Source: an uncultured Acidobacteriota bacterium (GTDB taxonomy: Bacteria > Acidobacteriota > Polarisedimenticolia > Polarisedimenticolales > DASRJG01). From it: DNA of 64,000 bases. Position numbers and translations under genes: made by a program. Below the pieces are notes generated by a model. The model did no database searches, was not told the DNA's origin, and saw only the letters and a list, made by a program, of their open reading frames with translations. The stretch's first letter is position 1. Every line of letters begins with the position of its first letter. This document shows, piece after piece, positions 1 through 21,597 of this stretch. The DNA lies in NCBI GenBank assembly GCA_964511835.1, contig CAZEII010000001.1, positions 52,957 to 116,956 on the forward strand, in the 5' to 3' direction.

Positions 1-228
1 GTCGCGCGGTTCCCGGCGTCGGGGTCGGCGCACATCGAGGCCGAGAGCCAGTACGGGCAGGTCGAATGCGAATTCGCGACGATAACTGTGGATTCCGATC
101 GTCGCAAGGCGACCGGCGTCATCGGTCACCCCGGCCCGGCGGTCGTTCACGTCGTGTCCGGCGGCGACGCTCGCTTGCTGGGACCGGAGCAGCCCGCCGC
201 CTCCTCGGCGCCGGACGAAGACCGCTAG
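1..228 (+). CDS. 3' end of an unidentified protein-coding gene (partial, runs off the left edge)
   Basis: Frame +1 is open from base 1 to TAG at 226-228 (..HVVSGGDARLLGPEQPAASSAPDEDR*). Third codon positions are strongly G/C, as in neighbouring real genes. It is absent from the ORF track because it has no in-window start. No family recognised. Confidence 0.4.
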   Translation, partial: VARFPASGSAHIEAESQYGQVECEFATITVDSDRRKATGVIGHPGPAVVHVVSGGDARLLGPEQPAASSAPDEDR

Positions 229-2015
229 GGGGTCGAGCGCCGGTGGGCGTCGATCGACGCCAAGCCACGGCGCGCGGCCTCGGATCGCGGATCGCGCAAC
301 AGCACGTCCCGGAGCTCCCGCTCGGCGTCGTCCCACGCTTCGCGTGCAATGAGCAGCCCCGCGAGATCGAGACGTGCGAGCACGAAGGTGGGGTCGATCT
401 CGACGGCGCTCCGCAGCGCCGCCTCCGCCCCGGCGCGATCCCCCCGCTTCTCGAGGATCGCGCCGAGCTGGGCCAACGCGACCGGCTGTCGCGGCTCGAT
501 GCGCAGCGCGTCGCGAATCTGCTCCTCGGCGCCGGCAAGATCGCCCGCTTTGAGAAGGACCCCCGACAGGTTGATTCGGGTCAGCACGTGATCGGGTGCG
601 AGAGCTGCCGCGCGCTCGAGGCGCGCGCGGGCTTCGTCGAGACGCCCGCGGGCCATGAGCTCGACGGCCAAGTTTCCAAGGACCTTCACGCTCCGCGGCG
701 CGGCGCGCTCGGCAGCTGAGAACAGCGTGAAATCGTCCCGCCATGTGCCGGCCGCGGCGACGGTCCGCGCCAGCGCGGCGATCAGCACCGCGCCGGAGGC
801 GAGGGTGGTGACCTTCGGTCCGCATCGGCGAGCCAGCGGCGCGGCGCACGATGCGAGCAGGAGGCAGAACGCCGTCGAGGGGAGATACGCGAGCCGCTCC
901 GCCATTCCGACGCCGATCGTCACGACGGTGTTCGAGACGATCGAGTACGTCGCGGCGCCGAAGGCGAGCTCCCACGCGACGACTCGGCGGCCGCGCAGGC
1001 ACACGACGAAAAGACAGCCCGCGCCTAGAGCCGCTGCCGCCCCCAAGAGGAGCATCGGATCGGCAAGGGAGGAAACGGGCTCCAGCTCGGCGAAGCCCCA
1101 ATCGGGGGAGAGCCGCACGGGCGCGACGAGCAGCATCACGTACCGGCCGAGGACCGCGAGCGCGCTCAGCAGTCTGGCGGGGAGCGGGAGCCCGACCAAC
1201 GGATTCTCGATGAGGCTGACGGACGCGGCGGGGACCAGAAGCCCGCCGAGCACGATGCGGCGCGCGAGGAGATACACCGTCACGGGCAGCACGGCCGCGG
1301 CGGCACCCGTCGCGAGATCGCGCCCGTTCCGCTTGACGAAGGCGCCGATCGGCACGCCCTCGCCGCGCTGGATGAGGAACTGCCAGGCGACCGCCGCCGC
1401 CGGAAAGGTGACGGCGGTCTCCTTCGAGAGCAAGGCGAGGAGGACGAGACCGCCGGTGAGGACGCGGCCGCCGGCGCTTCGCAGCCTTATGTAAGCGAGG
1501 AGCGCGGAGATGTAGAACAGGGAGCACAGGAGCTCCGCCCGCCCGGTGATGCCCGCGACAGCCTCTGCGTGAACGGGATGCGCAGCAAAGAGCGCCGCGG
1601 CGACCGCGGCGGGGATCAGCGGCATGGCGAGGGCGAGGGCCAGCTCCAGAACGAGGCTGGACACGAGAGCGTGGAGGAAGACGTTCGCCGCGTGGAACGC
1701 GAAGGGCCTCCCGTCGTGGAGCGCGTGCTGCGCGGCGAACGAGAGGATCGTCAACGGCCGGTACAGACCCGTTGCGACCGCCGGGCCGGGCCCCTGGTGA
1801 TAGGGCGTTGTGAAGGCTTCCACAAAGCGATGTTCGCGCACGACCTCCTGGAGCTGGATGACGGTGTCGTCGTCGAACACGAAACCGTCTCCGAGAGTGG
1901 CGAGATACGGGGTCACGGCGATGACGGCGATCGCCGCACGGACGACCAGCCGCGTGCGGCCCGACGCGCGAGGTGGAGAATCCAACGCGACGCAGGTTAC
2001 CATAGTGCGCCTCAT
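225..2015 (-). CDS. TMTC-like GT-C membrane glycosyltransferase (DUF1736/PMT-like polytopic N-domain) with C-terminal TPR repeats, paralog 1
   Basis: Track ORF 225..2117(-). Start placed at Met35 (2015); Met39 at 2003 is equally possible. It has the first-loop motif GDGFVFDDD, then YRPLT, HAANVFLHA, HPVHAEAV and SKE motifs shared with the paralogs at 3630, 5417 and 9176. The last ~170 aa are TPR-like. Confidence 0.8.
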   Translation of the reverse strand: MRRTMVTCVALDSPPRASGRTRLVVRAAIAVIAVTPYLATLGDGFVFDDDTVIQLQEVVREHRFVEAFTTPYHQGPGPAVATGLYRPLTILSFAAQHALHDGRPFAFHAANVFLHALVSSLVLELALALAMPLIPAAVAAALFAAHPVHAEAVAGITGRAELLCSLFYISALLAYIRLRSAGGRVLTGGLVLLALLSKETAVTFPAAAVAWQFLIQRGEGVPIGAFVKRNGRDLATGAAAAVLPVTVYLLARRIVLGGLLVPAASVSLIENPLVGLPLPARLLSALAVLGRYVMLLVAPVRLSPDWGFAELEPVSSLADPMLLLGAAAALGAGCLFVVCLRGRRVVAWELAFGAATYSIVSNTVVTIGVGMAERLAYLPSTAFCLLLASCAAPLARRCGPKVTTLASGAVLIAALARTVAAAGTWRDDFTLFSAAERAAPRSVKVLGNLAVELMARGRLDEARARLERAAALAPDHVLTRINLSGVLLKAGDLAGAEEQIRDALRIEPRQPVALAQLGAILEKRGDRAGAEAALRSAVEIDPTFVLARLDLAGLLIAREAWDDAERELRDVLLRDPRSEAARRGLASIDAHRRSTP

Positions 2016-3633
2016 GATCGAACGCGAAGGAGCGGCGCGCTTCCGGGTGAAAACGGTCTGGCAGACGACCACGCTCTTCTTCCTGGCCGCGTTCGTTCTG
2101 CAGACCGCGGGCAGCATGCGACTGTTCTCCGCGAGCAGCGACGAGACCTCCCACCTCCCCGCGGGCTACACCTACCTCGTGACGGGCGACTTCCGGCTGA
2201 ACCCGCAGCATCCACCCCTCGCGAAACTACTCTCGGCCGCGCCGCTCCTCGCGCTCTCGCCGCGACTCGACCTGACCGATCCTTCGTGGAGCGGGTCCCC
2301 TCCCGACGAGTGGCGGTTCGGGCAACGGTTTCTCTACGCGAACGATGCCGACCGCCTTCTGTTCTGGGGCCGGCTTCCCATGGTCGCGCTCGGCGTCGTG
2401 CTCGGCGTCTATACCTGGCTTTACGCGCGGGACCAGTTCGGCGAGTCCGCCGGCGCGATGGCCGCGCTGCTGTTCGCGCTCTGTCCGACGATCGTGGCGC
2501 ACTCGCACCTGGTCACGATGGACGTGGGCCTCGCGGCGTTCGCGGTCGCGGCGCTCTATCACCTGCGGAGCTACGCGCTGCACGATTCACGCGCGCACCT
2601 GCTCGCCTCCGGGGTCTTCTTCGGGCTCGCCCTGGCGACGAAGTTCTCCGCCGTGGCCCTCGGTCCGCCGATAGTTCTGCTCGTGATGCTCTCCGGGATG
2701 GGATGGGGCGGCCCGCGCGGGAACCCGGCGTCTCCGACCTCGGGGTGGGCGAAAGCGAGTGCTGCGTGCGCCCTTTATCTTGCCACCGCTGCGCTCGTCG
2801 TTTGGGCCCTCTACGCCTTTCCGAGGGACCCGCTCTTTTACTGGCACGGGATGCGCCTCGTGAATCGCGATCACAGCCCGGACGTTCCGGACTATCTTCT
2901 GGGGCAGTTTCGCGTCCACGGCTGGTGTTACTACTTCCCCCTGGCGTTTCTCTTCAAGACCCCTCTTCCGACGATCGGATCCATCGGGCTCGGCGCCTGG
3001 CGCTGGAGACGCTCGCGGCCGGCCGGGCGTCTGGACGGGGCGATCCTCCTCCTGCCCGCCCTGGGATTCACGGTCGCGACCGCGGCGCTCGCCGACAACA
3101 TGGGAGTGCGCTATCTCCTCCCGGTCCACGCGCCGCTCTTCGTTCTCGCCTCCTGCGCGGCGCCCTGGCTGCTTGTCACGTGGCCTGGGCGCGCCGCCGC
3201 GGCGGTCATCGCGACCTGGCTGATCGTCGGCGCGTGGCTGATCTACCCCGACCATCTTGCCTACTTCAACGAAGCGGTCGGCGGGCCCGCACGAGGGCCG
3301 CTTCTCCTCGACGATTCCAACATCGATTGGGGACAAGACCTGAAACGGCTGAAGCGTTTCGTGGATGACCACCGGCTGGCCAGTGTCCGGCTGCTCTATC
3401 CGTGGAACGGCTCGCCGCGCTACTACGGCATCGCCTCCGAGCCGGTCACGCGGGCCGACTGGCTCGAGCGTCCACGTCCCGGAGTCTACGCGATCAGCAC
3501 GATGGCGCTCGTTCGAGGGCGCCTGACGGCGCGGAGCGAGGGGGCTCACAGCGATTGGCTCGACCGGTACCGACCGGTCGATCGCGTCGGCTACTCGTTC
3601 TACATCTACGCGTTCGGGGCCCCGCCGCCATGA
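2014..3633 (+). CDS. Glycosyltransferase family 39 / ArnT-PMT_2-like polyprenyl-phosphate-sugar dependent membrane glycosyltransferase (no TPR)
   Basis: Track ORF 1810..3633. Start moved to ATG 2014 (MIEREGAARFRVKTVWQTTTLFFLAAF.., first TM helix). The loop SDETSHLPAGYTYLVTGDFRLNPQHPPLAKLL is typical of the family, with ~10 further hydrophobic segments. Confidence 0.8.
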   Translation: MIEREGAARFRVKTVWQTTTLFFLAAFVLQTAGSMRLFSASSDETSHLPAGYTYLVTGDFRLNPQHPPLAKLLSAAPLLALSPRLDLTDPSWSGSPPDEWRFGQRFLYANDADRLLFWGRLPMVALGVVLGVYTWLYARDQFGESAGAMAALLFALCPTIVAHSHLVTMDVGLAAFAVAALYHLRSYALHDSRAHLLASGVFFGLALATKFSAVALGPPIVLLVMLSGMGWGGPRGNPASPTSGWAKASAACALYLATAALVVWALYAFPRDPLFYWHGMRLVNRDHSPDVPDYLLGQFRVHGWCYYFPLAFLFKTPLPTIGSIGLGAWRWRRSRPAGRLDGAILLLPALGFTVATAALADNMGVRYLLPVHAPLFVLASCAAPWLLVTWPGRAAAAVIATWLIVGAWLIYPDHLAYFNEAVGGPARGPLLLDDSNIDWGQDLKRLKRFVDDHRLASVRLLYPWNGSPRYYGIASEPVTRADWLERPRPGVYAISTMALVRGRLTARSEGAHSDWLDRYRPVDRVGYSFYIYAFGAPPP

Positions 3634-5417
3634 GCTCGACGCGCCTGCGGCGCTTCCTTCCGACTCTCGCGATCGCTGTCGTCTCAGTCGCCGTCTACCT
3701 TCCGGGTCTCCCGGGAGAGTTCGTCTACGATGACCACCGGCTCATCGCGGATAACGACGGGCTCAAGCGTCCCTTCGATTGGAGGCGCTCCGTTCTCCGC
3801 GACTACTACGCTTCCGACATCGATCGTATCGGCCTCGGTTACTACCGGCCGGTCGCCCTCCTGAGCAACGAGCTCGACTATCGGCGGAGCGGCGGATCGC
3901 CCGCGGCATTCCATGCGACGAACATCGCGATTCACGCCGCCTGCACGATGCTCGTGGCCGCTCTCGCTGCCGGGCTGCTCGGGGTGGGGCCGGCCGCCTG
4001 GTCGGCCGCGCTCCTCTTTGCGGTGACTCCGGTGCACGCTGAAACGGTCGCCTTCATATCGGGGCGCGTCGATTCTTTGGCCGCGCTGTTCGGTCTTCTG
4101 GCGCTCCTGTGCCATCTCGCCGCGAACGCCAGTAAGACACCGGCCGTCTGGCGGGTCGGCGCCGGCGCGGCTTGGCTCCTGTCGCTCGGGTCGAAGGAGA
4201 TGGCGATCACGGTCCCGGTCGTCGCTCTGCTCGTCGAAACTTCCGAGGAGGGATGGCCGGGCGGCCGTCGCATGCTCGAGCGGCTCCCGCGCTACCTGCC
4301 GTACGTCCTCGCCTGGATCGTCTACCTGCCCCTGAGGATGGCGGCGCTGGGCTCGCTGATGCCGCCGAGCGCGCGGGGCGCGTCACTCGCGATCGCGCGG
4401 CCGCCCGTGGTCGTCGGGAGCTACGTCGCGTGGCTGATCGCACCGCCCCCCGGGCTGCACCTCGAGCCCGACCTGGCCGGCGGCGCGCTCGCGGTCGCCG
4501 CCTCGGTGTTGGCGGGGAGCGTGATCGTGGGTGTGGCCGTGCTTTGGAGGCGCGGCCTCAGGATCGAGGGAGCGCTCCTGGGCGCGTGCGTGGTGACGCT
4601 CCTTCCCGTCGCTCAGCTCAAGCCTCTCGAGACGACGCTCTCGGAGCGCTTCCTCTACTTTCCGAGCGCGATGGCGGCGGTGCTGGCGGGGGCGGTCGTT
4701 CGGCGCGCGGGAACGGGGCGACGGCTGGCGATCGCTGGGGCGACCGTGCTGCTGGCGAGCGCGGCGTACGCTTCAATCCTCGTCCCGCGCGCGCGCCTCT
4801 GGCGAGACGAGGTTGCGCTCTGGGAGGCCAAGGACCGAGAGTCCGGGGGATCCCTCAAGGCAAGACTCAATCTCGCACGGGCTTACGCCCATCGCGGAGA
4901 ACGCGAGCGAGCGGTCCGGGCCTACGACGCGGCGACGCGCCTCGCGCCCGAGCTGGCCGAGGGGCTCTCCGCCGAAATCGCAGCCGTGACGTCCGACGTA
5001 GGAAGCGCCGACTACGAGAAGAGCCTCTCGAAGTCACTGGCGGAGCTGCCCAACGACGCCACGCTCTGGAACAACCTGGGTTTCCACCGCTACCGGACTG
5101 GGGATCTGGCCGGAGCTCAAGACGCTTTCGCCCGGGCGACAGAGCTCACCCCGGCGCGCTCGACCGCCTGGCTCGGCCTCGCCTTGACCCATCTCGCCGC
5201 GGGCGAGCTTGCCGAAGCGGACGCTGCCGCCGTCCGGGCGCGGGCCATCTCGCCGGATCTCGGTGAGGCAGCCGCGATCCGGGTCGAGTGCGCGCTCAAA
5301 CTCGGGCGTCCTTGCGATGCGGTCGCCCTCGCCGCGGGCATCGAGCTCTCGGAGCCCGGAGAGCGCGCCGTGCTCGAGCGGATGGTGGCCCGGGCGCGGG
5401 CGTTGTGCGGGCGGTGA
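3630..5417 (+). CDS. TMTC-like GT-C membrane glycosyltransferase with C-terminal TPR repeats, paralog 2
   Basis: Track ORF 3402..5417. Start at ATG 3630 overlaps the upstream stop (ATGA). Motifs PGEFVYDDH, YYRPV, FHATNIAIHA, TPVHAETVA, SKE. The C-terminal third is TPR-like (LNLARAYAHRGERERAVRAYDAATRLAP..). Confidence 0.8.
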   Translation: MSSTRLRRFLPTLAIAVVSVAVYLPGLPGEFVYDDHRLIADNDGLKRPFDWRRSVLRDYYASDIDRIGLGYYRPVALLSNELDYRRSGGSPAAFHATNIAIHAACTMLVAALAAGLLGVGPAAWSAALLFAVTPVHAETVAFISGRVDSLAALFGLLALLCHLAANASKTPAVWRVGAGAAWLLSLGSKEMAITVPVVALLVETSEEGWPGGRRMLERLPRYLPYVLAWIVYLPLRMAALGSLMPPSARGASLAIARPPVVVGSYVAWLIAPPPGLHLEPDLAGGALAVAASVLAGSVIVGVAVLWRRGLRIEGALLGACVVTLLPVAQLKPLETTLSERFLYFPSAMAAVLAGAVVRRAGTGRRLAIAGATVLLASAAYASILVPRARLWRDEVALWEAKDRESGGSLKARLNLARAYAHRGERERAVRAYDAATRLAPELAEGLSAEIAAVTSDVGSADYEKSLSKSLAELPNDATLWNNLGFHRYRTGDLAGAQDAFARATELTPARSTAWLGLALTHLAAGELAEADAAAVRARAISPDLGEAAAIRVECALKLGRPCDAVALAAGIELSEPGERAVLERMVARARALCGR

Positions 5418-7204
5418 TGAGCCGTCCCAAGATCTCGGCTTGGATCGCGCTCTCGCTGTTTGCTGTCACGCTGATCTTGTACGCGCCCGTCGTCCGATTC
5501 GAGTTCATCCGCTACGACGATCCGGGCTACGTGGTTCTGAATCCTCGCGTGTCGACGGGCCTGAGCTGGTCGAACGTGGGCTGGGCCCTCACGGCGTTCG
5601 AGGTGGGCAACTGGCATCCTCTCACTCTGATCTCCCACATGACCGACGTGTCGATCTTCGGTATGCATCCCGGGGCGCATCACGCCGTCAATGCGACGCT
5701 CCATGCAGCCAACGCCGCGCTCCTGTTCTTGTTCTGGAATTTGGCGACGGGAAGGCCGTGGCCAAGCCTCCTCGCCGCGGGCCTATTCGCCGTGCATCCG
5801 CTGAACGTTGAGTCGGTCGCGTGGGTGGCTCAGCGAAAGAGCGTGCTCTGCATGCTCTTCGTAATCGCGAGCCTTCTCGCCTACGCGGGCTGGACGCGAC
5901 ACGCGGGGCCGACGCGTTACGCGCTCGCGTTGGGGTTCTTCGTGGCGGCATTGATGTCGAAGCCGATGGCGGTTTCCATGCCGGCCCTCCTTTTGCTTCT
6001 CGACGTCTGGCCGTTCGCTCGGATGGCGCCGGTGCGGCGACTTCTTCTCGAGAAGGTCCCATTCACCGTCGTCGCGGTGGCCGCGTCGGTTGTCGCATGG
6101 GAGGCTCAGCGCTCGGGCGGCGCGCTCGGGACGTTCCGCGACTATCCAATCGGGGTGCGTGCCGCCGACGCGGTGTTCGCAGGGGGGTGGTACGTGTTTC
6201 GCATGTTATGGCCGCGCAATCTCTCGCTGTTCTACCCGACGACGCTGGGGCCCCACGCGGCAATCGAAGTTGCCGGCTCCCTGCTCCTCATGGCCGCCGT
6301 GACCGCGCTCGTCGCGCTACTCGGCCGCTCGAGGCGATACCTCGTCCTCGGATGGGGCTGGTACCTCGCGGCGCTCGCGCCGGTCCTCGGCCTCGTGCAA
6401 TTCGGAACTCAGATCGTCGCCGATCGATACGCCTACCTCGCCTTGATCGGGCCGTTCGCGGCGATCGCGTTCGGTGTATCCGACATCGTCGCGGACTGGA
6501 CCGAACGGACCCGGCGACTCACTGGCGCCCTGGGCGCCGCGTCGTTCGTCGCCCTCGCGCTCGCGACGGGCACGGCGCTCGCGCCGTGGCGTGATTCGGT
6601 GTCGGTGCTGAGCCGCGGCTACGAACGGGCTCCGGACAACGTTCACGCTCTGACGAATCTTGGGCTCGAATTGGTCGAGCTGAATCGCTTCGAGGAGGGC
6701 ATCACCCTCCTCAGCAAGGCGGCGCGCTCGATCCCGCTCTACAGCACCGTGCACGTGAACCTCGGGTACGCTTATGCGAAGACCGGGCGGCTCCAGGACG
6801 CGCGGGCGGAGTACGAGATCGCCCTGCCGATGCGGCCCGACGATGCGAAGCTCGCGATGGAGCTCGGGCGGGTGCTCGTGCAGCTCGGCGAACGGAACGA
6901 CGCGGAAACGTGGCTTCGCGAATCGCTCGCACGCGATCCCGGGCTTGTGCAAGCATGGCTCTTTCTCGGGACGCTGTTCTACGCCGAGGGGCGGTACGCC
7001 GAAGGGGAACCGGTGTTCGAGCGGGCGGCGGAGCTGGCCCCCGGGGATGCGAGAGCGCTGACCGCGCTCGGCGTCAATCTCGCTGCCCTCGGCCGCCGCG
7101 ACGAGGCGATCGCCGTGCTTCGCAAAGCAACGGCCCTGGACCCGGGATTTGCGCGCGCGCGCACGGAGCTTCAAACTCTCATCGGGTCAGGAGACCCTCC
7201 GTGA
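5417..7204 (+). CDS. TMTC-like GT-C membrane glycosyltransferase with C-terminal TPR repeats, paralog 3
   Basis: Track ORF 5288..7204. Start at ATG 5417 shares its A with the upstream TGA. Motifs FEFIRYDDPGYV, NWHPLT, HHAVNATLHA, HPLNVESVAWV, SKP. There are ~200 aa of clear TPRs at the C-terminus (NLGYAYAKTGRLQDARAEYEIALPMRPDD..). Confidence 0.8.
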   Translation: MSRPKISAWIALSLFAVTLILYAPVVRFEFIRYDDPGYVVLNPRVSTGLSWSNVGWALTAFEVGNWHPLTLISHMTDVSIFGMHPGAHHAVNATLHAANAALLFLFWNLATGRPWPSLLAAGLFAVHPLNVESVAWVAQRKSVLCMLFVIASLLAYAGWTRHAGPTRYALALGFFVAALMSKPMAVSMPALLLLLDVWPFARMAPVRRLLLEKVPFTVVAVAASVVAWEAQRSGGALGTFRDYPIGVRAADAVFAGGWYVFRMLWPRNLSLFYPTTLGPHAAIEVAGSLLLMAAVTALVALLGRSRRYLVLGWGWYLAALAPVLGLVQFGTQIVADRYAYLALIGPFAAIAFGVSDIVADWTERTRRLTGALGAASFVALALATGTALAPWRDSVSVLSRGYERAPDNVHALTNLGLELVELNRFEEGITLLSKAARSIPLYSTVHVNLGYAYAKTGRLQDARAEYEIALPMRPDDAKLAMELGRVLVQLGERNDAETWLRESLARDPGLVQAWLFLGTLFYAEGRYAEGEPVFERAAELAPGDARALTALGVNLAALGRRDEAIAVLRKATALDPGFARARTELQTLIGSGDPP

Positions 7205-8277
7205 CGCGACGGCTCGATCCCGCCGTGGTCTCCCTTGCCGAGGCGCTCGATCGGCGCACGGTCGAAGGGTCGCTCTACGTCAAGCTCCCTGACGAGCGGG
7301 TCAAGTGCTTCGCCTGCGCCCATCGCTGCACGATCCTCCCCGGTCTGGACGGCATCTGCCGCGTGCGATCGAACCGCGGCGGGACGCTCATGGTCCCGCG
7401 AGGGTACGTCGCCGCGCTCCAGGACGATCCGATCGAGAAGAAGCCGTTCTTCCACGCCCTTCCCGGCGCGCGGGCCCTGTCCTTCGGGATGCTCGGCTGC
7501 GACCTTCACTGCTCGTACTGCCAGAATTGGGTGACCTCGCAGGCCCTGAGGGACCCCGCGGCGTTGGCGGGCCCGAGGGACGTCGAGCCGGAGGAGCTCG
7601 TCGCCTTCGCCGCGCGCCACGGCAACGCGGTCATGGTGTCGACCTACAACGAGCCGCTGATCACCGCGGAGTGGGCCGTCGAGGTGTTCGCGGCAGCGAA
7701 AGCCTCGGGCATCGTCTGCGGCTTCGTGTCGAACGGCAACGCGACGCCCGAGGTGCTGGAATTCATCCGCCCCTATGTCAGCCTCTACAAGATCGATCTC
7801 AAGGGGTTCACGGAGAAGCACTACCGGGGGCTCGGCGGAAAGCTCAAGAGCATTCTCGATACGATCGAGCGGGTCCACGCGATGGGTTTCTGGATCGAGA
7901 TCGTGACGCTCCTCATTCCGGGGAGCAATGACGACCCCGGCGAGATGCGCGACCTGACGGGTTTCGTGGCGTCGATCTCGCCCGACATCCCGTGGCACGT
8001 CACCGCGTTTCATGGCGACTACAAGATGTGCGCGACGCGCGACACGACGGCGGACGATCTCCTCCGCGCGGCGGAGATCGGCCGCGAGGCGGGACTGCGG
8101 TACGTTTACGCCGGAAACCTCCCGGGGCAGGTGGGCGATCTCGAGGACACGCGCTGCCCGTCGTGCGGGACTCCGGTGATCGAGCGGCGCGGCTTCCGCG
8201 TCGTCCGGCGCGCGCAGGCCGCCGATGGGTCGTGCCCGGCGTGCGGCACGGCGATCGCGGGATACTGGGCGGCATGA
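7201..8277 (+). CDS. amrS: AmmeMemoRadiSam system radical SAM enzyme (AmrS-type)
   Basis: Track ORF 6910..8277. Start at GTG 7201 (GTGA overlap). It has the N-terminal CxxCxHRC..GxCxxR cluster (CFACAHRCTILPGLDGICRVRSN), the radical SAM motif GCDLHCSYCQNW, and a C-terminal CPSCG..CPACG zinc-ribbon-like pair. Confidence 0.85.
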   Translation: MTRRLDPAVVSLAEALDRRTVEGSLYVKLPDERVKCFACAHRCTILPGLDGICRVRSNRGGTLMVPRGYVAALQDDPIEKKPFFHALPGARALSFGMLGCDLHCSYCQNWVTSQALRDPAALAGPRDVEPEELVAFAARHGNAVMVSTYNEPLITAEWAVEVFAAAKASGIVCGFVSNGNATPEVLEFIRPYVSLYKIDLKGFTEKHYRGLGGKLKSILDTIERVHAMGFWIEIVTLLIPGSNDDPGEMRDLTGFVASISPDIPWHVTAFHGDYKMCATRDTTADDLLRAAEIGREAGLRYVYAGNLPGQVGDLEDTRCPSCGTPVIERRGFRVVRRAQAADGSCPACGTAIAGYWAA

Positions 8278-9107
8278 CCGGTCCGCCCCGCAGCGTTCTC
8301 TATGTCCCGGCGTCGCGGCGGGAGTTCCTCGACAAGATCCCGTCGCTCCCCGCCGATCTGGTGCTCGTCGATCTCGAAGACGGCGTCGCACCCTCTCGCA
8401 AGGAGGAGGCGCGCGAGCACGTCCGCGGCGCGGTGACGTCCGGCCTGTTGGGCCCCGGCGCTCGCTGGATGCTCCGCGTCAACGGAGGCCTCGTAGGACC
8501 GCCCGCGGAGGACTTGAGGCTCATCGGGTTCGCCAAGCCGCCCGTCGTCGTGCTGCCGAAAGCCGAGGACGCCGGGCACGTCCGAACCATCGCGGCGCGC
8601 CTCGCCGAGCACGGCACGGCGGTCGCGCTGATGATCGAGACCGCCGCGGGCGTCGCCGCGGCCATGGATCTCTTGGGGGCTCACGACGGAATCTGCATGG
8701 CGATCCTGGGCTCGGCGGATCTGCAGCTTTCGCTCCGCGCGCGGCCCGACCGCGGACGCCGTTGGGAGCTCCACGCGTTGAGCTCAGTGCTCGTCGCCGC
8801 GCGGCGTCACGGGCGCGCGGCGATCGACTCCATCTACGTCCATTACCGCGACGAGGACGGCTTGCGCGAGCACGCCGCGATCGCCCGTGACCTCGGCTAC
8901 GACGGCAAGAGCTGCATCCACCCGGGACAGATCGCGACAATCCACGACGTCTACCGGAGCACCAAGGCCGAGGTCGCCTGGGCGCGCCGCGTTCTCTCGG
9001 CATGGGCCGACGGTAACGGGAAAACGAACGGCGTCGTCGCCGTCGACGGCGAGATGATCGAATCGCTCCACGTGACCGTCGCCGAGCGCATCCTCGAACG
9101 GCAATAG
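8274..9107 (+). CDS. HpcH/HpaI aldolase / citrate lyase beta subunit (CitE)-like acyl-CoA lyase family protein
   Basis: Track ORF 7992..9107. Start at ATG 8274 (ATGA overlap with amrS stop). The N-terminus SVLYVPASRREFLDKIPSLPADLVLVDLEDGVAPSRKEEAR and the later IHPGQI motif are typical of the CitE/malyl-CoA lyase-like family. Confidence 0.75.
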   Translation: MTGPPRSVLYVPASRREFLDKIPSLPADLVLVDLEDGVAPSRKEEAREHVRGAVTSGLLGPGARWMLRVNGGLVGPPAEDLRLIGFAKPPVVVLPKAEDAGHVRTIAARLAEHGTAVALMIETAAGVAAAMDLLGAHDGICMAILGSADLQLSLRARPDRGRRWELHALSSVLVAARRHGRAAIDSIYVHYRDEDGLREHAAIARDLGYDGKSCIHPGQIATIHDVYRSTKAEVAWARRVLSAWADGNGKTNGVVAVDGEMIESLHVTVAERILERQ

Positions 9108-9180
9108 GGGAGCGGAGAAATTCGGGACATTCTGCTCTTGACCAAAAGCAGAATGTCCCGAATTTCTCCGCTCCCCTATT
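9103..9180. terminator. 34-bp perfect inverted repeat (10-nt spacer) between convergent genes; putative bidirectional terminator / RNA stability hairpin
   Basis: The left arm 9103-9136 (AATAGGGGAGCGGAGAAATTCGGGACATTCTGCT) is the exact reverse complement of 9147-9180. Both arms include the stop codons (TAG 9105-9107 on +, TAG on - at 9176-9178). No U-tract follows on either strand. Confidence 0.65.
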
Positions 9181-10777
9181 CCAGCTCGCGGAGTCGCGGG
9201 AGAAGGTCGGTGCGGCCCAAGGCAACGGCACGCCGATAGGCGTCGGCCGCGTCACGCCGTCGGCCGGTCTCATAGCGGAGGTGCCCGAGCTCGGCCCACG
9301 CCCGCGCATCGCCTGGATCGAGGAGCAAGGCCTTGCGAACCTCGCGCTCGGCCGCGTCGAGCCGCCCCAGACGGTGCAGGGCGAGCCCCAGGCTGACGTG
9401 CGGCTCCTCGCGCGCGGGCTCGATCCGCACCGCCTCGCGAAACGCGCGCTCCGCGCCGCTGAAGTCTCCGGCCTTCGCGAGCTGGAGCCCCTTGTCGTGC
9501 CAGGGACCGGCGAATTCAGGCCAATGGGCGATTGCTTCGTCGTACCGCCCCAGCCAATACGGCGCGCGCGGGCTCTTCGGGTTGTTGCGCGCCGTCGCGG
9601 CGAAGATCGTCGCGTCGTCCTTCCAGTCGAGAGATCTCGCGAACATGAGCATGCCGAATACGGCGATGACGCCGATCACGACGGCGCGCACCGAGCCGCC
9701 GGCGCGCGAGATCGGAAGCGCTGCGAGCAAACAGAGTCCGGCCACGGGGAGATAGAGAAAGCGCTCGGCGAGGATGGCCCCAACCGGTACGAAGAGATTG
9801 CCGACGAGGAGGTAGGGGAGAAGGGTCATCGCGGCGAAGAGCGCCGCCGCCCGGCCGCGCGTCGCCGTCCACAGGAGTCCGGCGAGGAGGATTGCGCCCA
9901 CGATCGGCCGAACCCCGAAAATCGAGGACTCGATCGCGACCGACGCTCCCGAATAGTCGTTGGCGAGGCCGAGCGGGAGCACGACGATCCGGGCGTAGCG
10001 GGCGACGAGCCCGAGCGCCGTCGCCGCGTACCGGGCCCCGTGCTCTCGGACGAGCGGGTTGTCGATCACCGGGACGGTCTGCGGCATGAAGAACGTTTCG
10101 AGTGCTTCGGTCCGCATGACGAGGAAGACAGTGAGGGCGAGAAGGGACGGCGCGATCATCCCGACGACGTCGAGCGGCCGGCGCGCGCCGAGCGCGGCCA
10201 GGACGACCAGAGGGAAGGCGACGAGGCCGGTCTCCTTCGATCCGCAGGCGAGCAGCACGCAGATCGCCGCCCCCCACGCGGCGAGACGCGAACCCTCCTC
10301 CGACGCCAGTCGCACGGCGGCGAGCGTGAAGAGGGCGGCGAGCAGCTCGGCGCGGCCGACGACGTTCGCGACCGCTTCGGATTTCGACGGACAGACGGCG
10401 AACAGGAGGGCGGCGAGGAGCGCGGCCCGCGGATCCGCACCGTACCGGGCGGCCAGGCCGAAGACCAGCCAGCAGACCGCGGCGTGAAGCGCGAGATTGA
10501 TCGCGTGGGACACCTCCGGCCGCGCGGCGCCGGTCGCCGCGCGCTCGAGCGCGTAGCTCGCCACCGTCGTCGGCCTGTAGAGCGTTCTGTCGTCGCCGCG
10601 CGCTCCCTCCCAATAGGACGCGCCGAAGATCGACTCGAGGCTCCCCCGGGCGACGACGACGCTCCCCTCGACCGCGACATGGTCGTCCTGGACGTATCCG
10701 GCGGTGAGAAGCGGGAGGTGGGAGGCGAGAACGGCCGCGGCCAAGAGGCCGGCGGCGGCTTTGGGCCCGAAGGTCAC
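9176..10777 (-). CDS. TMTC-like GT-C membrane glycosyltransferase with C-terminal TPR repeats, paralog 4
   Basis: Track ORF 9176..11704(-). The first 309 aa overlap ftsK and are Arg/Pro-rich junk. Start set at GTG 10777 (VTFGPKAAAGLLAAAVLASHL..), overlapping the ftsK stop (GTGA). Motifs AGYVQDDH, LYRPTT, SHAINLALHA, CPSKSEAVA, SKE, with C-terminal TPRs. Confidence 0.8.
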   Translation of the reverse strand: MTFGPKAAAGLLAAAVLASHLPLLTAGYVQDDHVAVEGSVVVARGSLESIFGASYWEGARGDDRTLYRPTTVASYALERAATGAARPEVSHAINLALHAAVCWLVFGLAARYGADPRAALLAALLFAVCPSKSEAVANVVGRAELLAALFTLAAVRLASEEGSRLAAWGAAICVLLACGSKETGLVAFPLVVLAALGARRPLDVVGMIAPSLLALTVFLVMRTEALETFFMPQTVPVIDNPLVREHGARYAATALGLVARYARIVVLPLGLANDYSGASVAIESSIFGVRPIVGAILLAGLLWTATRGRAAALFAAMTLLPYLLVGNLFVPVGAILAERFLYLPVAGLCLLAALPISRAGGSVRAVVIGVIAVFGMLMFARSLDWKDDATIFAATARNNPKSPRAPYWLGRYDEAIAHWPEFAGPWHDKGLQLAKAGDFSGAERAFREAVRIEPAREEPHVSLGLALHRLGRLDAAEREVRKALLLDPGDARAWAELGHLRYETGRRRDAADAYRRAVALGRTDLLPRLRELE

Positions 10778-13080
10778 GTGACGGAGCCCAGCGTCTCGAG
10801 GATCTCGGGGCCCACGAGCAGCTCGCGCGGTTTGCTGCCGTCGGCCGGCCCTACGATCCCCTCCTGCTCCATCATGTCGACGATCCGCGCGGCGCGCGCG
10901 TACCCCAAGCGCATGCGGCGCTGAATCAGCGTGATCGAGCACATCCCTTCCTGGAGGACCAGGCGCACGGCCTCGACGTACATCGCATCGCGGTCCCCGG
11001 CCTCGAACGGCCCTTCGCGCTCTTCGTCGGGATCCTTCAGGACCGACTCGTCGTACACCGGCTTCGCCTGCTTCTTCAAGAACGCGACGATCCGGTTCAG
11101 CTCCGGCTCGGTGATGAACCCGGAGTGGAGGCGGAGGAGACGCCCGGAGCCCGACGGGAGGAAGAGCATGTCGCCTCGGCCGATGAGGTGCTCCGCTCCC
11201 TGCTGGTCGATGATCGTGCGCGAGTCCACGCGTTGGCTGACGCGGAAGGCGATGCGGGCGGGGAAATTCGCCTTGATGGTTCCGGTGATGACGTCGACCG
11301 ACGGCCGCTGCGTCGCCAGGATCAGGTGGATCCCGACGGCGCGGGCCATCTGCGCCAGCCGCATGATCGACTCCTCGACGTCGGCGGATGAGACCAACAT
11401 CAGGTCGGCCATCTCGTCGATCACGATGACGACGTAGGGGAGGGAGGAAAGGGGAGTCTCCTCGCCGGTCTTCTCGTCCTTGAGCGCGGCGCCGGGGCGC
11501 TCCGCGACCGCCTGGTTGAACTGCTCGATGTTGCGCACGCCGAGCGAGGCGAGCTTCTTGTAGCGTTGCTCCATCTCCCGCACCGCCCACTTGAGGGCGG
11601 TCGACGCGTGCTTGGGCTCGGTGACGACGGGGATCAGGAGGTGCGGGATCTCCGCGTAGATCCCCAGCTCGATCATCTTCGTGTCGATCATGATGAACCG
11701 GCACTCGGCCGGCGTCGCCTTGTAGAGGATGCTCGTGATCATTCCGTTGAGGCCGACCGATTTTCCCGCGCCGGTCGCGCCGGCGATCAAGATATGCGGC
11801 ATGCGCTCCAGCTCCGCGGTGAAGACGTCTCCCTTGATGTCCTTCCCGAGAGCGAGCGTCAGCTTGGACTTGCCTTGCCGGAATTTCTCGGAGCCCAGAA
11901 GCTCGCGGGGATAGATGACCTCCTGGTGCCGATTCGGGACCTCGATTCCCACGGTGGACTTGCCGGGGATGCGGTCGATGCGGATCGATTCCGCCTTGAG
12001 GCCGAGGCAGAGGTCGTCGACGAGTCCGACGATCTTCGAATAGCGGACGCCGGAGTCCGGAGCGAACTCGAACGTCGTCACGACCGGTCCCGGATGGATC
12101 GCGACGACCTTCCCCTCGACCGCGAACTCGCGGAACTTGTCGGTCAGCTGCTGGGCGCGCGCGAGGAGGTCCTTCTCGTTCTCACCCTCCTGCGGCAGCG
12201 GGTCGTTGAGAAGCTCGAGGGGGGGAAGGGCGTACGCGCCGGCCGGCTGGCTCTCGAGGAGCTGATGTTGTTTGAGAGCCGGGGCGGGCGTCGGCTTCGG
12301 GGTCCTCGCCGTCACCTTGGGGCGCGCCGGAGGCAGGTCGATCGCCGCGTCGTCTTCCAGCTGGATCGAAGGCCGGACCGACGATGGCGCGGGCGGTTCG
12401 GCAGCGATCTGGCGCTGGGCCGCCGACTTCGCGTGCTTCTTCTCGAGCTGCCGCTTCTGAGCGTCGCGGCGACGAGCTTCGCGGAACGCCGAAAGACGCT
12501 CCCATCCGCTGGCCAGCTTCCCGCCCACCCCGACGCCCACCTTTTCGGCGGTGCGGGCGAACGAGAAGCGGGTGGTCAGGACGATCGTCGCCGCGAGCAG
12601 CGTGCCTGCCGTCAGGATCGCGCCGAAAGGATTCATCAGCGCCGTCATCAATCCGGCGATCCGCGTGCCGACGTAACCCCCGGCCGGAAACACCTCGCCG
12701 CCGTAGCGGATGGAGCCGTAGAGGAGATCGAGGAGCGTGGCGAGCGACGCGACGAGCGCGAGCAGGCCGAGCAGCCGGCCGTAGGAGGACGCCACGCTGC
12801 GGCCGCGGAATCGATTCCACCCGGTGACGGCGAGAACGGCCGGAACGAAGAAGGCCGCCGTCCCCAGAAGCTGAAGCAGAAGCTCGGCGAGAGTGGCGCC
12901 GACCCGCCCCGTCCAATTCGCCGCATGCGCGAACGCCGGCTGCGACTGGAACCAAGTCGCATCGGTCGCCCGGTAGCTGGCGAGCGCGACGATCGTGATC
13001 GCCGTCAACAGCAGGAGCAGAAGCCCCGCGACCTCGTCGAACCACCCCTTCTGGCGAAGCTTCGAGAGCGTCACGTCCAT
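10774..13080 (-). CDS. ftsK: DNA translocase FtsK/SpoIIIE
   Basis: 768 aa. It has N-terminal TM helices, a Pro/Ala-rich linker, the Walker A motif GATGAGKS, and a C-terminal winged-helix gamma domain (SITLIQRRMRLGYARAARIVDMME). Confidence 0.95.
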   Translation of the reverse strand: MDVTLSKLRQKGWFDEVAGLLLLLLTAITIVALASYRATDATWFQSQPAFAHAANWTGRVGATLAELLLQLLGTAAFFVPAVLAVTGWNRFRGRSVASSYGRLLGLLALVASLATLLDLLYGSIRYGGEVFPAGGYVGTRIAGLMTALMNPFGAILTAGTLLAATIVLTTRFSFARTAEKVGVGVGGKLASGWERLSAFREARRRDAQKRQLEKKHAKSAAQRQIAAEPPAPSSVRPSIQLEDDAAIDLPPARPKVTARTPKPTPAPALKQHQLLESQPAGAYALPPLELLNDPLPQEGENEKDLLARAQQLTDKFREFAVEGKVVAIHPGPVVTTFEFAPDSGVRYSKIVGLVDDLCLGLKAESIRIDRIPGKSTVGIEVPNRHQEVIYPRELLGSEKFRQGKSKLTLALGKDIKGDVFTAELERMPHILIAGATGAGKSVGLNGMITSILYKATPAECRFIMIDTKMIELGIYAEIPHLLIPVVTEPKHASTALKWAVREMEQRYKKLASLGVRNIEQFNQAVAERPGAALKDEKTGEETPLSSLPYVVIVIDEMADLMLVSSADVEESIMRLAQMARAVGIHLILATQRPSVDVITGTIKANFPARIAFRVSQRVDSRTIIDQQGAEHLIGRGDMLFLPSGSGRLLRLHSGFITEPELNRIVAFLKKQAKPVYDESVLKDPDEEREGPFEAGDRDAMYVEAVRLVLQEGMCSITLIQRRMRLGYARAARIVDMMEQEGIVGPADGSKPRELLVGPEILETLGSVT

Positions 13081-13092
13081 ACGGGCGCCAGT

Positions 13093-14766
13093 CTACAACT
13101 CAACGATGACCGGAATGATCAGCGGCCTCTTTTGCGTCCGCTTCCGGAGGAATCGCCGCAGGCCGGCTTGGATCTTCGCCTTGAGGAGCCCCTCGTCGGC
13201 CCGCTCCTCGAGCGAGGTGTCGGATAGGGAGAGCGCGACCACGTCGCGCGCCTCGCGGAGGAGCTCCTCCTCGGTCGCGTCCGAGACGAACCCCCGGCTG
13301 GCGATCTCCGCCGGGCCCGACACCGAGCCGCTGTCCCGGTGCACCGCGACGACGGCGATCACGATGCCGTCGCCGGCGATCTGCCGCCGGTCGCGCAGCA
13401 TCGTGAAGTCCACCCGGTCGAGCGCCCCATCGATGAAAACCTGGCCGACCGGGACGCGCTCGGCGCGCCGGAACTCCTCGGCCGTCAACGTCAGCAGGTC
13501 GCCCGACTCCGCGAGCAGCACGCGCTCCGGGTCGAGCCCGCAGGCGCGGCCGATCGCCGCGTGCGCCGCGAGCTGCCGGTACTCCCCATGGATCGGGAGC
13601 AGGAATTTGGGACGCAGAAGGTGGAGGAGGAGCGACAGCTCGTCGCGTCGCGGGTGTCCGGAAACGTGAATCGGTGCGTCCTCCGACGTGACCACCGTCG
13701 CCCCCCGCCGGAGGAGGTGGTTGATCATCCGCCCGATGCTCTTCTCGTTCCCGGGGATCGAGCGAGCCGAGTGCAGCACCAGATCCCCGTCGGAGACGAC
13801 GACGTCGCGATGCTTGTCGACGGCGATGCGGGCGAGCGCGGAGGTCGGCTCGCCTTGCGAGCCGGTGACGAGGAAGAGCGATCGCTCCGGCGGCAAGTTC
13901 ATCGCGGCCTCGGGAGTCACGGACGTCCCCGGCGGAATGCGCAGCAGGCCCAGATGAAGGGCCACGTCGGTGTGGAACTCCATCGACGACCCGACGATCG
14001 CGACCTTCCTCCCGTGCGCGACCCCCGTGTCGATCACTTGCTGCAGCCTGTGAATGTTCGACGAAAACGTCGTGACCAAAACGCGCCCGCGGGCTCCTTC
14101 GATCGCCCGCGCCAGGGCCGGCCCGACGGTCCGCTCGCCCGCCGTAAACCCGGGAAGCTCTGCGTTGGTGCTGTCGGAAAGGACCGCGAGCACCCCCTTC
14201 TCGCCCAGACGCGCCAGGCGCGCGAGGTCGGTCCCCGGCCCGCTCAAGGGGTACGGATCCAGCTTGAAATCGGCCGTGTGGACGATCTTCCCGACCGGCG
14301 TGTCGAGCACCAGCATCGAGGACTGGGGGATCGAGTGCGAGACGGCGAGCGTCTCCACGGTGAACGGCCCGAGGCGGAGCGCGGTGCCGTCGGGCGGGAA
14401 AGGGACGAGGCGCGGGCTGGCGTCGAGCTCGTGCTGCGCGAGCCGGCCGCGGACCAGGCCCAGCGTGTAGGGCGTGCCGTAGATGGGGACGTCGCGCCGC
14501 GCGAGGAGGAATGGAATCGCGCCGATGTGATCTTCGTGGCCGTGGGTCAAGAGAGCGGCGTGGATCGCGCCGCAGTCGTCCAGAAAATCCATGTTGGGCA
14601 CGACGACGTCGACGCCGAGGTGCTCCGCACCCGGGAACATCATCCCCGCGTCGACGACGACACAGTCCCCGCCGTAGCGGTAGACCATGAGGTTCATGCC
14701 GAACTCGCCGAGACCGCCCAGGGGGACGATTTCGAGCCGGTGGGCGCGAGCCATCCGCGGCATCAT
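13093..14766 (-). CDS. rnj: Ribonuclease J (metallo-beta-lactamase / beta-CASP)
   Basis: 557 aa with the HGHEDHIGAIPFLL motif. Layout is the full-length RNase J type (MBL, beta-CASP, C-terminal domain). Confidence 0.9.
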   Translation of the reverse strand: MMPRMARAHRLEIVPLGGLGEFGMNLMVYRYGGDCVVVDAGMMFPGAEHLGVDVVVPNMDFLDDCGAIHAALLTHGHEDHIGAIPFLLARRDVPIYGTPYTLGLVRGRLAQHELDASPRLVPFPPDGTALRLGPFTVETLAVSHSIPQSSMLVLDTPVGKIVHTADFKLDPYPLSGPGTDLARLARLGEKGVLAVLSDSTNAELPGFTAGERTVGPALARAIEGARGRVLVTTFSSNIHRLQQVIDTGVAHGRKVAIVGSSMEFHTDVALHLGLLRIPPGTSVTPEAAMNLPPERSLFLVTGSQGEPTSALARIAVDKHRDVVVSDGDLVLHSARSIPGNEKSIGRMINHLLRRGATVVTSEDAPIHVSGHPRRDELSLLLHLLRPKFLLPIHGEYRQLAAHAAIGRACGLDPERVLLAESGDLLTLTAEEFRRAERVPVGQVFIDGALDRVDFTMLRDRRQIAGDGIVIAVVAVHRDSGSVSGPAEIASRGFVSDATEEELLREARDVVALSLSDTSLEERADEGLLKAKIQAGLRRFLRKRTQKRPLIIPVIVEL

Positions 14767-14781: not shown

Positions 14782-15639
14782 CTATCCCGGCCAGGCGCGG
14801 GCGAGCGCGAGAAATCCTTCCGCCGGGACCCGCTCGGCGCGCAGCGAGCCGTCGATCCCGGCGCGCGCGAGGAGCTCCTCCGCGGCTTCGTCGCGCGGCA
14901 GTGCGGCGCGGAGGTTTCGCTTGATCGTCTGCCGGCGTCGCGCGAACGAAGCCCGCAGGACGGCTTGGAGCGGCGCGACGAGGGAATCGTCGAGCGCGGC
15001 GACCTCCCGCCGCGTCCATCGAGTCACGGTCGACGTCACCAAAGGCGGCGGCCGGAACGCACGGGGCGCCAGGTCGAAGAGGCGCTCGATCGCGTAAGCC
15101 TGTCCTGCCAGCACGCTCAGCGGGCCGTACGACCCGCTTCCCGGCACCGCGGTGAGGCGGTCCGCAACCTCGCTCTGGAACATGAGGACCGCGCGCGTGA
15201 CGTGAGATCGCTCCCGCACGAGCTTCATCGCCAGAGGTTTCGAGATGTTGTACGGGAGGTTGCCGGCGATCAGCAAGGGACGTCCGCCCGCCAGCTCGGA
15301 GAGCAGGACATCGAGGACATCGGCCTCGATCAACCGCAGGCGATCCTCCCGGAACCGCTCGCGAAGAACGACCCCCAGATCTCTATCGATCTCGATCGCT
15401 GCGATCCGCGGGACGGCCTCGAGCAACGCTGCCGTCAGCGCGCCGCGCCCGGGGCCGATCTCGAGGACGTTGTCGGTCGCCTTCGGATCGAGCGCGGCGA
15501 CGATGCGCCGAATCGCCTTGACATCGATCAGGAAATTCTGGCCGAACCGCTTGCGGGGCGGAGAGGGCCCCGCCCTCTTGGAGGCCGTGACGAGCGAACC
15601 CCGCGTGCTAGATTGCTTCCGTCGCACGGAACCCGTCAT
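14782..15639 (-). CDS. rsmA: 16S rRNA (adenine1518/1519-N6)-dimethyltransferase
   Basis: 285 aa with KRFGQNFLID, EIGPGRGALT and GNLPYNIS motifs. Confidence 0.95.
   Translation of the reverse strand: MTGSVRRKQSSTRGSLVTASKRAGPSPPRKRFGQNFLIDVKAIRRIVAALDPKATDNVLEIGPGRGALTAALLEAVPRIAAIEIDRDLGVVLRERFREDRLRLIEADVLDVLLSELAGGRPLLIAGNLPYNISKPLAMKLVRERSHVTRAVLMFQSEVADRLTAVPGSGSYGPLSVLAGQAYAIERLFDLAPRAFRPPPLVTSTVTRWTRREVAALDDSLVAPLQAVLRASFARRRQTIKRNLRAALPRDEAAEELLARAGIDGSLRAERVPAEGFLALARAWPG
15587..15614 (+). promoter_or_regulatory. Candidate extended -10 promoter for trxA (GTGACG-N16-TGcTAGATT)
   Basis: GTGACG lies at 15587-15592 and TGC-TAGATT at 15606-15614, 43 nt upstream of the trxA ATG. The RBS GGAGGAG lies between. 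The element is inside the 5' end of the divergent rsmA. Confidence 0.35.
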
Positions 15640-15656: not shown

Positions 15657-15989
15657 ATGTCCAGCCCCCAGATCGTTCATCTTACCGACGACAGCTTCGA
15701 CGAGACCATCAAGAACGCCCGAGGTCCCGTCCTCGTCGACTTCTGGGCCGCCTGGTGCGGACCGTGCAAGATCATCGCCCCGTACCTCGATCAGATCGCC
15801 AGCGAGGTCCAGGGCAAGGCGACGATCGCCAAGGTCAACGTGGACGAGAACGGCGACCTTTCGGCGCGCTTCGGGGTCCGCAGCATTCCGACGCTCGTGA
15901 TCTTCAAGGACGGCCGGGTCGTCGATCAGACGATCGGCGCTCTTCCCAAGGAGCAAATCCGGAGCTGGCTGGCCAAGCACATGGCCTAA
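15657..15989 (+). CDS. trxA: Thioredoxin
   Basis: 110 aa with the active site WAAWCGPCK. Confidence 0.95.
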   Translation: MSSPQIVHLTDDSFDETIKNARGPVLVDFWAAWCGPCKIIAPYLDQIASEVQGKATIAKVNVDENGDLSARFGVRSIPTLVIFKDGRVVDQTIGALPKEQIRSWLAKHMA

Positions 15990-19657: not shown

Positions 19658-19722
19658 CGGGGTTCGTCCACACCTCAATGCCGGTCACGTGCTGGGACTG
19701 GAGCCATTCTGAAGGAGGTTCG

Positions 19723-21596: not shown

Positions 21597-21597
21597 C

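Follow-up and report, generated by a model that had tools for sequence, protein, structure and literature searches.

The radical S-adenosylmethionine (SAM) superfamily is marked by a CX3CX2C motif, which holds a [4Fe-4S] cluster that cleaves SAM to a 5'-deoxyadenosyl radical, and in the AmmeMemoRadiSam system one such enzyme, AmrS, is encoded with the AMMECR1 protein AmrA and the Memo protein AmrB. AMMECR1 and Memo are conserved from archaea to humans, and genomic contexts that combine Memo, AMMECR1, and the radical SAM enzyme have reportedly been linked to nucleotide-base or isoprenoid modification. In the literature on AmmeMemoRadiSam, on AMMECR1 with radical SAM, and on Memo, we found no experimental function, only comparative-genomic predictions. 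One of these describes a gene neighborhood in which AMMECR1 occurs together with a radical SAM enzyme and a dioxygenase and predicts RNA base modification for it (Balaji and Aravind, 2007; PMC2034487), and an AmmeMemoRadiSam-related mention is made in passing elsewhere (PMC7159879).

Here we describe an amrS gene in a 64,000-nucleotide stretch, referred to below as the window, of contig CAZEII010000001.1 (positions 52,957 to 116,956, forward strand; assembly GCA_964511835.1) from an uncultured Acidobacteriota bacterium of the class Polarisedimenticolia. In contrast to the three-gene system, this gene has neither amrA nor amrB within 64 kb and instead overlaps the gene for a CitE-like lyase, whereas upstream a chain of GT-C glycosyltransferase-type genes runs into it. 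We think it probable that this is an unexceptional AmrS orthologue, inherited vertically and unchanged in its chemistry, that the GT-C chain is incidental, and that the lyase is co-expressed with AmrS.

AmrS and its missing partners

The product of 7201-8277 passed the TIGR04337 (AmmeMemoSam_rS) hidden Markov model (HMM) at 264.1 bits, against a cutoff of 220, which lies in the range of trio-linked AmrS proteins (257, 270, and 290 bits; two orphan AmrS proteins scored 271 and 281 bits). The next best model, PFLA, reached 55.4 bits against a cutoff of 231.75. The original prediction of an AmrS-type enzyme was thus borne out, and a better score on another radical SAM subfamily, which had been raised as an alternative outcome, did not occur. 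Over its full length, the protein is 58-63% identical to trio-linked members of the family: 58% to the AmrS of L173 (GCA_035515795.1; the homologous loci that we fetched are given L numbers), which has a verified AmrS-AmrA-AmrB operon (AmrA, TIGR04335, 187 bits; AmrB, TIGR04336, 269 bits), and 60-63% to the AmrS proteins of L021, L031, L036, L061, and L064, each encoded directly 5' of a Memo-AMMECR1 fusion.

The radical SAM cluster motif (C100-x3-C104-x2-C107) and the two accessory motifs (C36/C39/H41/C43/C53 at the N terminus and C319-x2-C322...C345-x2-C348 at the C terminus) are identical in the window protein and the trio-linked members. They are invariant in all 172 homologues that we aligned, 10 trio-linked proteins among them, and identity reaches 97% or more in 112 of the 358 alignment columns. 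In the alignment as a whole we found no position specific to the clade in which AmrS is linked to the CitE-like lyase, and neofunctionalization of AmrS in that clade was rejected because such positions were not found. Nothing in the sequence suggests that this AmrS is altered. The GTG start codon at 7201, with GGAGA 7-11 nt to its 5' side, is supported by the fact that the N termini of orthologues align from residue 1. The exact protein is present in public data (P0001), and its closest named relative, at 70% identity, comes from a metagenome-assembled genome (MAG) of Candidatus Polarisedimenticolaceae. AmrS is strongly conserved in general, with 58-65% identity between MAGs of Acidobacteriota, Ignavibacteria, Kryptoniota, Chloroflexota, Omnitrophota, Verrucomicrobiota, Poribacteria, and Planctomycetota (L008-L167).

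That the protein has been misassigned, and is really an activase of glycyl-radical enzymes like the pyruvate formate-lyase activating enzyme (PFL-AE), is extremely improbable. PFL-AE (3c8f) is the closest solved fold to the AlphaFold2 (AF2) model of the protein (pLDDT 84) and the only sequence match in the PDB, where neither sequence nor fold searches found a solved AmrS structure, and the product name given to homologues in many JGI records is "pyruvate formate lyase activating enzyme." The model has the partial TIM barrel of PFL-AE (3c8f/3cb8; Foldseek E = 6e-11; TM-score of 0.74, normalized to PFL-AE), and the CX3CX2C cluster site near the N terminus is common to both proteins. However, the two are only 19% identical, and the window AmrS exceeds PFL-AE (245 amino acids [aa]) by ~110 residues and has, at the N and C termini, two further Cys4 modules that PFL-AE lacks; PFL-AE covers only about half of the AmrS model (TMq of 0.52). 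Every activase HMM failed, with 24-55 bits against cutoffs of 131-500, and we rejected an activase identity on these scores. Pfam scans of the window genes found no glycyl-radical enzyme that could serve as a partner. We conclude from the sequence comparisons that 7201-8277 encodes a genuine AmrS-type radical SAM protein and not a glycyl-radical activase.

The absence of AmrA and AmrB from the window, already asserted in the original prediction, was upheld by three kinds of search: neither an AMMECR1 nor a Memo domain turned up in Pfam scans of the ~48 called genes, a custom Memo-AMMECR1 HMM built from proteins beside AmrS homologues had no match in the six-frame translation of the window at E ≤ 10, and tblastn of the window with the verified AmrA and AmrB of L173 gave nothing at 1e-3. 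The premise that this absence is remarkable did not survive. We made two surveys, seeded by AmrS alone, which covered the best 80 loci in species-representative genomes and the best 80 in metagenomes. The sample is mainly Acidobacteriota, with some Ignavibacteria, Kryptoniota, Chloroflexota, Omnitrophota, and others, and is no census of the family; its homologues are mostly 58-65% identical to the window protein (range, 58-80%), and many of the closest relatives known from the protein search are missing from the best 80. AmrA or AmrB was encoded nearby in 7 of the 76 genome loci and 2 of the 45 metagenome loci that had at least 1.5 kb of downstream sequence, that is, in only 4-10% of ~120 surveyed loci, and in 5/48 species-level genome loci that extended 8 kb or more to each side. 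Among the surveyed loci, a lone amrS gene is the rule in this part of the family. In a neighbor-joining tree, the trio-linked loci fell into two small groups, one a subclade of Bryobacteraceae and the other Kryptoniota. Searching a database of 5.8 billion proteins with the AMMECR1-domain profile gave top 120 matches from Kryptoniota, Bacteroidota, Bryobacteraceae, and others, none of them named Polarisedimenticolia, a result that is uninformative for this genome.

In the first 87 fetched loci, which are mostly from Terriglobia-type Acidobacteriota, the recurrent neighbors of AmrS were a ~570-aa protein (26 loci) and a ~200-aa protein (17 loci), which resemble a PilZ-GAF-Sel1-type protein and a lipoprotein, respectively, as judged by reading the sequences without a domain scan.

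A two-gene cassette of AmrS and a CitE-like lyase

The gene that overlaps the end of amrS encodes a protein of the HpcH/CitE fold family (PF03328 HpcH_HpaI, 124.5 bits; cutoff, 25). It fell below the equivalog cutoffs both for citE (134.9 versus 443 bits) and for RipC (138.9 versus 375 bits), and Pfam scans of the window genes found no CitD/CitF or RipA/RipB partners. It is closest to the stand-alone CitE-like lyases, namely, Mycobacterium tuberculosis Rv2498c (6aq4), which is its best solved relative (E = 1.9e-32), the citrate lyase-family structure 3qll from Yersinia, and human CLYBL (5vxc), with which it shares aligned motifs and a length of ~275 aa. It differs from them in being paired with AmrS, and no citrate-lyase or itaconate-pathway genes adjoin it. 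The motifs DLEDGV, RVN, IET, and SADL, which include catalytic and metal (Mg)-binding residues, align with those of Rv2498c, and because they are conserved, the protein is probably an active coenzyme A (CoA)-ester lyase.

Whether AmrS and the lyase gene recur together had been posed as a check in the original prediction, and they do. The pair is present in L001, L002, L003/L004, L005, L006, L008, L088, L089, L090, L092, L168, and L170-L172, and in 14 of these 15 fetched loci the two genes overlap by the same 4 bp, ATGA or, in L008, GTGA. Since several of them are redundant (L001 is identical in sequence to the window, L003 and L004 encode the same protein, as do L170-L172), they represent about ten independent lineages. 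The overlap persists while the identity of AmrS drops from 80% to 65% and that of the lyase drops from 74% to 55%. The lyase-linked AmrS proteins are monophyletic in the neighbor-joining tree, in a clade related to Candidatus Polarisedimenticolaceae. Thus, AmrS and the lyase form a stable two-gene cassette within one acidobacterial lineage, and this lineage-specific, stably overlapped pair is the only feature of the locus with some novelty. One of the loci, L171 (GCA_035543755.1, DATKJH010000273.1), is labeled as a Candidatus Bathyarchaeia archaeon, has the bacterial gene order RNase III, AmrS, CitE, FtsK, RNase J, and is probably misbinned.

GT-C genes and the variable slot upstream of amrS

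The original prediction had drawn a chain of start/stop overlaps from the GT-C genes through amrS to the lyase gene. All four overlaps were found (ATGA at 3630-3633, TGATG at 5415-5419, GTGA at 7201-7204, and ATGA at 8274-8277), and the chain is continuous from 3630 to 8277. However, it does not exceed the chance expectation by much. With longest-open-reading-frame (ORF) or chosen starts, 16 of the 35 same-strand neighbor pairs in the window overlap, including pairs of functionally unrelated genes, such as holA and guaA (43350-43353), miaB and the HU gene (60145-60148), and nusB and leuS (39282). Start/stop overlaps are therefore the default in this compact, high-GC genome (the GC content of the window is 68%), and the coupling to the GT-C genes is no evidence of shared function.

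Coordinates of the genes and the palindrome around amrS in the window (Table 1)
Feature	Position	Strand	Evidence or remark
Tail of ~486-aa gene	7..195	+	tblastn, L004 486-aa protein; window starts inside gene
TMTC-like membrane/TPR protein, first gene of variable slot	225..2117	-	TPR and TMTC_DUF1736, 23.2-23.8 bits (below cutoff of 27)
GT-C fold glycosyltransferase (PMT_2)	2014..3633	+	PF13231, 60 bits; PF02366, 22.7 bits
Polytopic membrane protein, C-terminal TPR repeats ("TMTC-like" 1)	3630..5417	+	TPR matches; EFVYDD motif near N terminus
Polytopic membrane protein, C-terminal TPR repeats ("TMTC-like" 2)	5417..7204	+	TPR matches; stop overlaps AmrS start (GTGA)
AmrS, AmmeMemoRadiSam-type radical SAM enzyme, 358 aa	7201..8277	+	TIGR04337
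CitE-like/HpcH-family CoA-ester lyase, 277 aa (probable)	8274..9107	+	PF03328; start overlaps AmrS stop (ATGA)
Perfect palindrome, 34-bp stem	9105..9178	.	Fills gap between convergent lyase and TPR-membrane genes
Convergent TPR-membrane gene (TMTCd), first of conserved block	9176..10780	-	70% identical to L004 orthologue
ftsK (conserved block continues)	10774..13080		Pfam
rnj	13093..14766		Pfam
ksgA	14782..15639	-	Pfam
trx	15657..15989	+	Pfam

The GT39 and TMTC assignments originally given to these genes (Table 1) held in part. The product of 2014-3633 passes PMT_2, and the other four GT-C/TPR proteins of this region resemble TMTC proteins in architecture: their N-terminal domain is hydrophobic, with an FxYDD-type motif near the N terminus, and TPR repeats follow in the C-terminal part. 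The two encoded nearest to AmrS on its upstream side lack Pfam support in their membrane domains, with no match in the N-terminal 400 aa even at E ≤ 1, and TMTC_DUF1736 was detected, below threshold, only in paralogues. For these two, "TMTC-like" is an architectural label, since TPR is their only match, backed by their paralogy to the neighbors with subthreshold TMTC_DUF1736 scores. They are 27% identical to each other over their full length, and a recent tandem duplication was rejected on that basis. The start of 2014-3633 is uncertain because a start at 2014 would overlap the divergent start at 2117 by ~100 nt; one of the two probably lies further in, and ATG at 2116 and GTG at 2179 are alternatives for the PMT_2 gene.

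In the lyase-linked clade, the plus-strand gene order is a GT-C/TPR gene (x575), a 166-aa gene (x166), RNase III, a ~486-aa gene (x486), a variable slot, AmrS, and CitE, followed by a minus-strand TPR-membrane gene, FtsK, RNase J, and KsgA and then by plus-strand thioredoxin. L005, L006, and L092 share the order from the upstream genes to KsgA, and L004 and L170 do so up to the ends of their contigs. The block that begins with 9176-10780 has the same order in L002, L005, L006, and L092; in L004 and L170 the contig stops inside, or shortly past, the orthologue of 9176-10780, and in L168 the TPR-membrane gene is displaced to between rnj and ksgA. Residues 423-486 of the 486-aa protein of L004 match 7-195 of the window (34% identity; E = 9e-6), so the window begins with the tail of x486, and the four GT-C genes from 225 to 7204, three of which read into amrS, fill the variable slot.

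The content of this slot differs between relatives. It is empty in L004 and L170 and holds one opposite-strand TMTC-like gene in L005 and L092; in L006 it holds DUF8201 and, on the minus strand, a TMTC-like gene and a ThiF-rhodanese gene. L168 has ThiF, rhodanese, and ThiE there and is without the x575-to-x486 genes, and in L002 and L088, which are the closest relatives found (79-80%), the gene directly upstream is that of RNase III. In L005, L006, and L092, the slot contains orthologues of 225-2117 (40-41% identical). We found the GT-C genes of the window directly upstream of AmrS in no sampled relative, and among the surveyed loci outside the lyase-linked clade we found no GT-C genes in AmrS neighborhoods. 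The adjacency of AmrS and TMTC genes, whose recurrence the original prediction had proposed to survey, was thus seen among the sampled relatives only in this genome. Because the upstream neighbor is on the opposite strand in L005, L006, and L092, the AmrS-CitE cassette must be transcribed from a promoter of its own in these loci; in the window, a scan for sigma-70 and terminator consensus sequences gave no informative signal. More generally, the slot accumulates different genes in each relative, often paralogues encoding TMTC-like/TPR membrane proteins, and the window alone has five GT-C/TPR genes and a TPR-phosphodiesterase gene (50872-53850).

The hairpin that the original prediction had placed at the end of the chain is also present, as a perfect palindrome (Table 1) that runs from stop codon to stop codon, with both TAG stops inside the stem and a fold energy of -69.2 kcal/mol (z = -14.5). 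It is probably a bidirectional transcription stop; a U-tract is lacking, and the terminator scan did not pick it up. With no second copy in the window and none in the 174 fetched loci, we rejected a repeated mobile element. By eye, the palindrome looks AT-richer than the window, and at this site the gene ends of the relatives either overlap or lie ~40 nt apart.

Housekeeping genes make up the rest of the window: ftsK, rnj, ksgA, trx, cheA/W, a MoxR/Bat operon, leuS, holA, guaA, dnaE, ahcY, lptFG, parAB, miaB, hupB, rpsA, and scpB. The Rfam scan found no RNA gene match at gathering thresholds. An 802-aa ORF at 53857-56265 (minus strand) has two LptF_LptG matches and apparently encodes a fused LptF-LptG permease. 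The aerotolerance-type operon at 19678-27083 encodes MoxR, DUF58, VWA/BatA, TPR, and BatD proteins; its BatD-like ORF has a third-position GC content of 0.73, below that of its neighbors, and the 1-kb stretch at 23546-24553 is without a confident gene call.

What the pairing may mean

If the AmrS of the window is an ordinary orthologue, as we favor, it would cleave SAM reductively and abstract hydrogen from the same substrate as in trio-bearing organisms, with AmrA and AmrB encoded elsewhere in the genome or dispensable. The lyase would cleave a beta-hydroxyacyl-CoA of the malyl-, citramalyl-, or HMG-CoA type and would be co-expressed with AmrS, although a shared pathway is not demonstrable, and the GT-C chain would be a local accident of gene order in a compact, high-GC genome. 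Several points weigh against this account. The AmrS-CitE overlap has been kept over substantial divergence, beyond the usual drift of synteny, and may be a real functional link. GT-C/TPR genes recur around the cassette in the clade (TMTCd downstream, x575 upstream, and a PMT_2 gene in L002), such that a loose association of these genes with the block is conceivable. Finally, it is we who infer that the function is the same and that the partners act in trans.

The first of these points leads to an alternative that is possible, on balance unlikely, in which AmrS and the lyase are a functional two-enzyme module of the clade that replaces or supplements AmrA/AmrB, with AmrS acting on a CoA-ester or a 2-oxo/hydroxy-acid made or cleaved by the lyase, or the reverse. 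Such a module would fit the retention of the overlap, the intact catalytic residues of the lyase, and the fact that the pair stays together while the genes upstream change (RNase III, x486, ThiF-rhodanese, ThiE, or GT-C). However, the pairing is limited to one clade, as neither survey, among its best 80 loci, had a lyase gene adjoining AmrS outside it, and within that clade AmrS shows no substitutions of its own. Nor are the two genes inseparable: L169 has a 56%-identical lyase orthologue between infC and pfkB without AmrS, and L007 and L091 have AmrS (67 and 68% identical, respectively) without the lyase. No known chemistry joins the two families. Much less probable still is the idea of the original prediction that AmrS has been recruited to a glycosylation unit, where it would modify a GT-C substrate or carrier, for example, a polyprenyl-phosphate lipid. 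The continuous overlap chain and the recurrence of membrane/TPR GT-C paralogues near the cassette speak for it, but overlaps are commonplace in this genome, the relatives have RNase III, an opposite-strand gene, or ThiE directly upstream of AmrS where the window has GT-C genes, AmrS neighborhoods outside the clade are without such genes, and the AmrS sequence is unchanged compared with its trio-linked orthologues and has no clade-specific substitutions. We therefore return to the ordinary orthologue as the probable explanation of the locus.

For annotation, the locus carries the caution that, in compact, high-GC genomes, a stop/start overlap is no evidence of a common function. For the family, the rarity of AmrA/AmrB beside the sampled acidobacterial AmrS proteins, which retain ~60% identity across phyla, means that the "system" needs a test of genome-wide co-occurrence rather than an assumption based on its name. 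A bolder view, to which we give a slim chance, is that AmrS is independent of AmrA/AmrB in most Acidobacteriota and works with a co-translated CoA-ester lyase in the Polarisedimenticolia-related clade. If that were true, the "system" would not be obligate, and the pairing would suggest a CoA ester or a small organic acid as the substrate of a family whose chemistry has stayed unknown ever since its definition. The coupling of AmrS to the lyase in one lineage offers a cheap lead toward a substrate.

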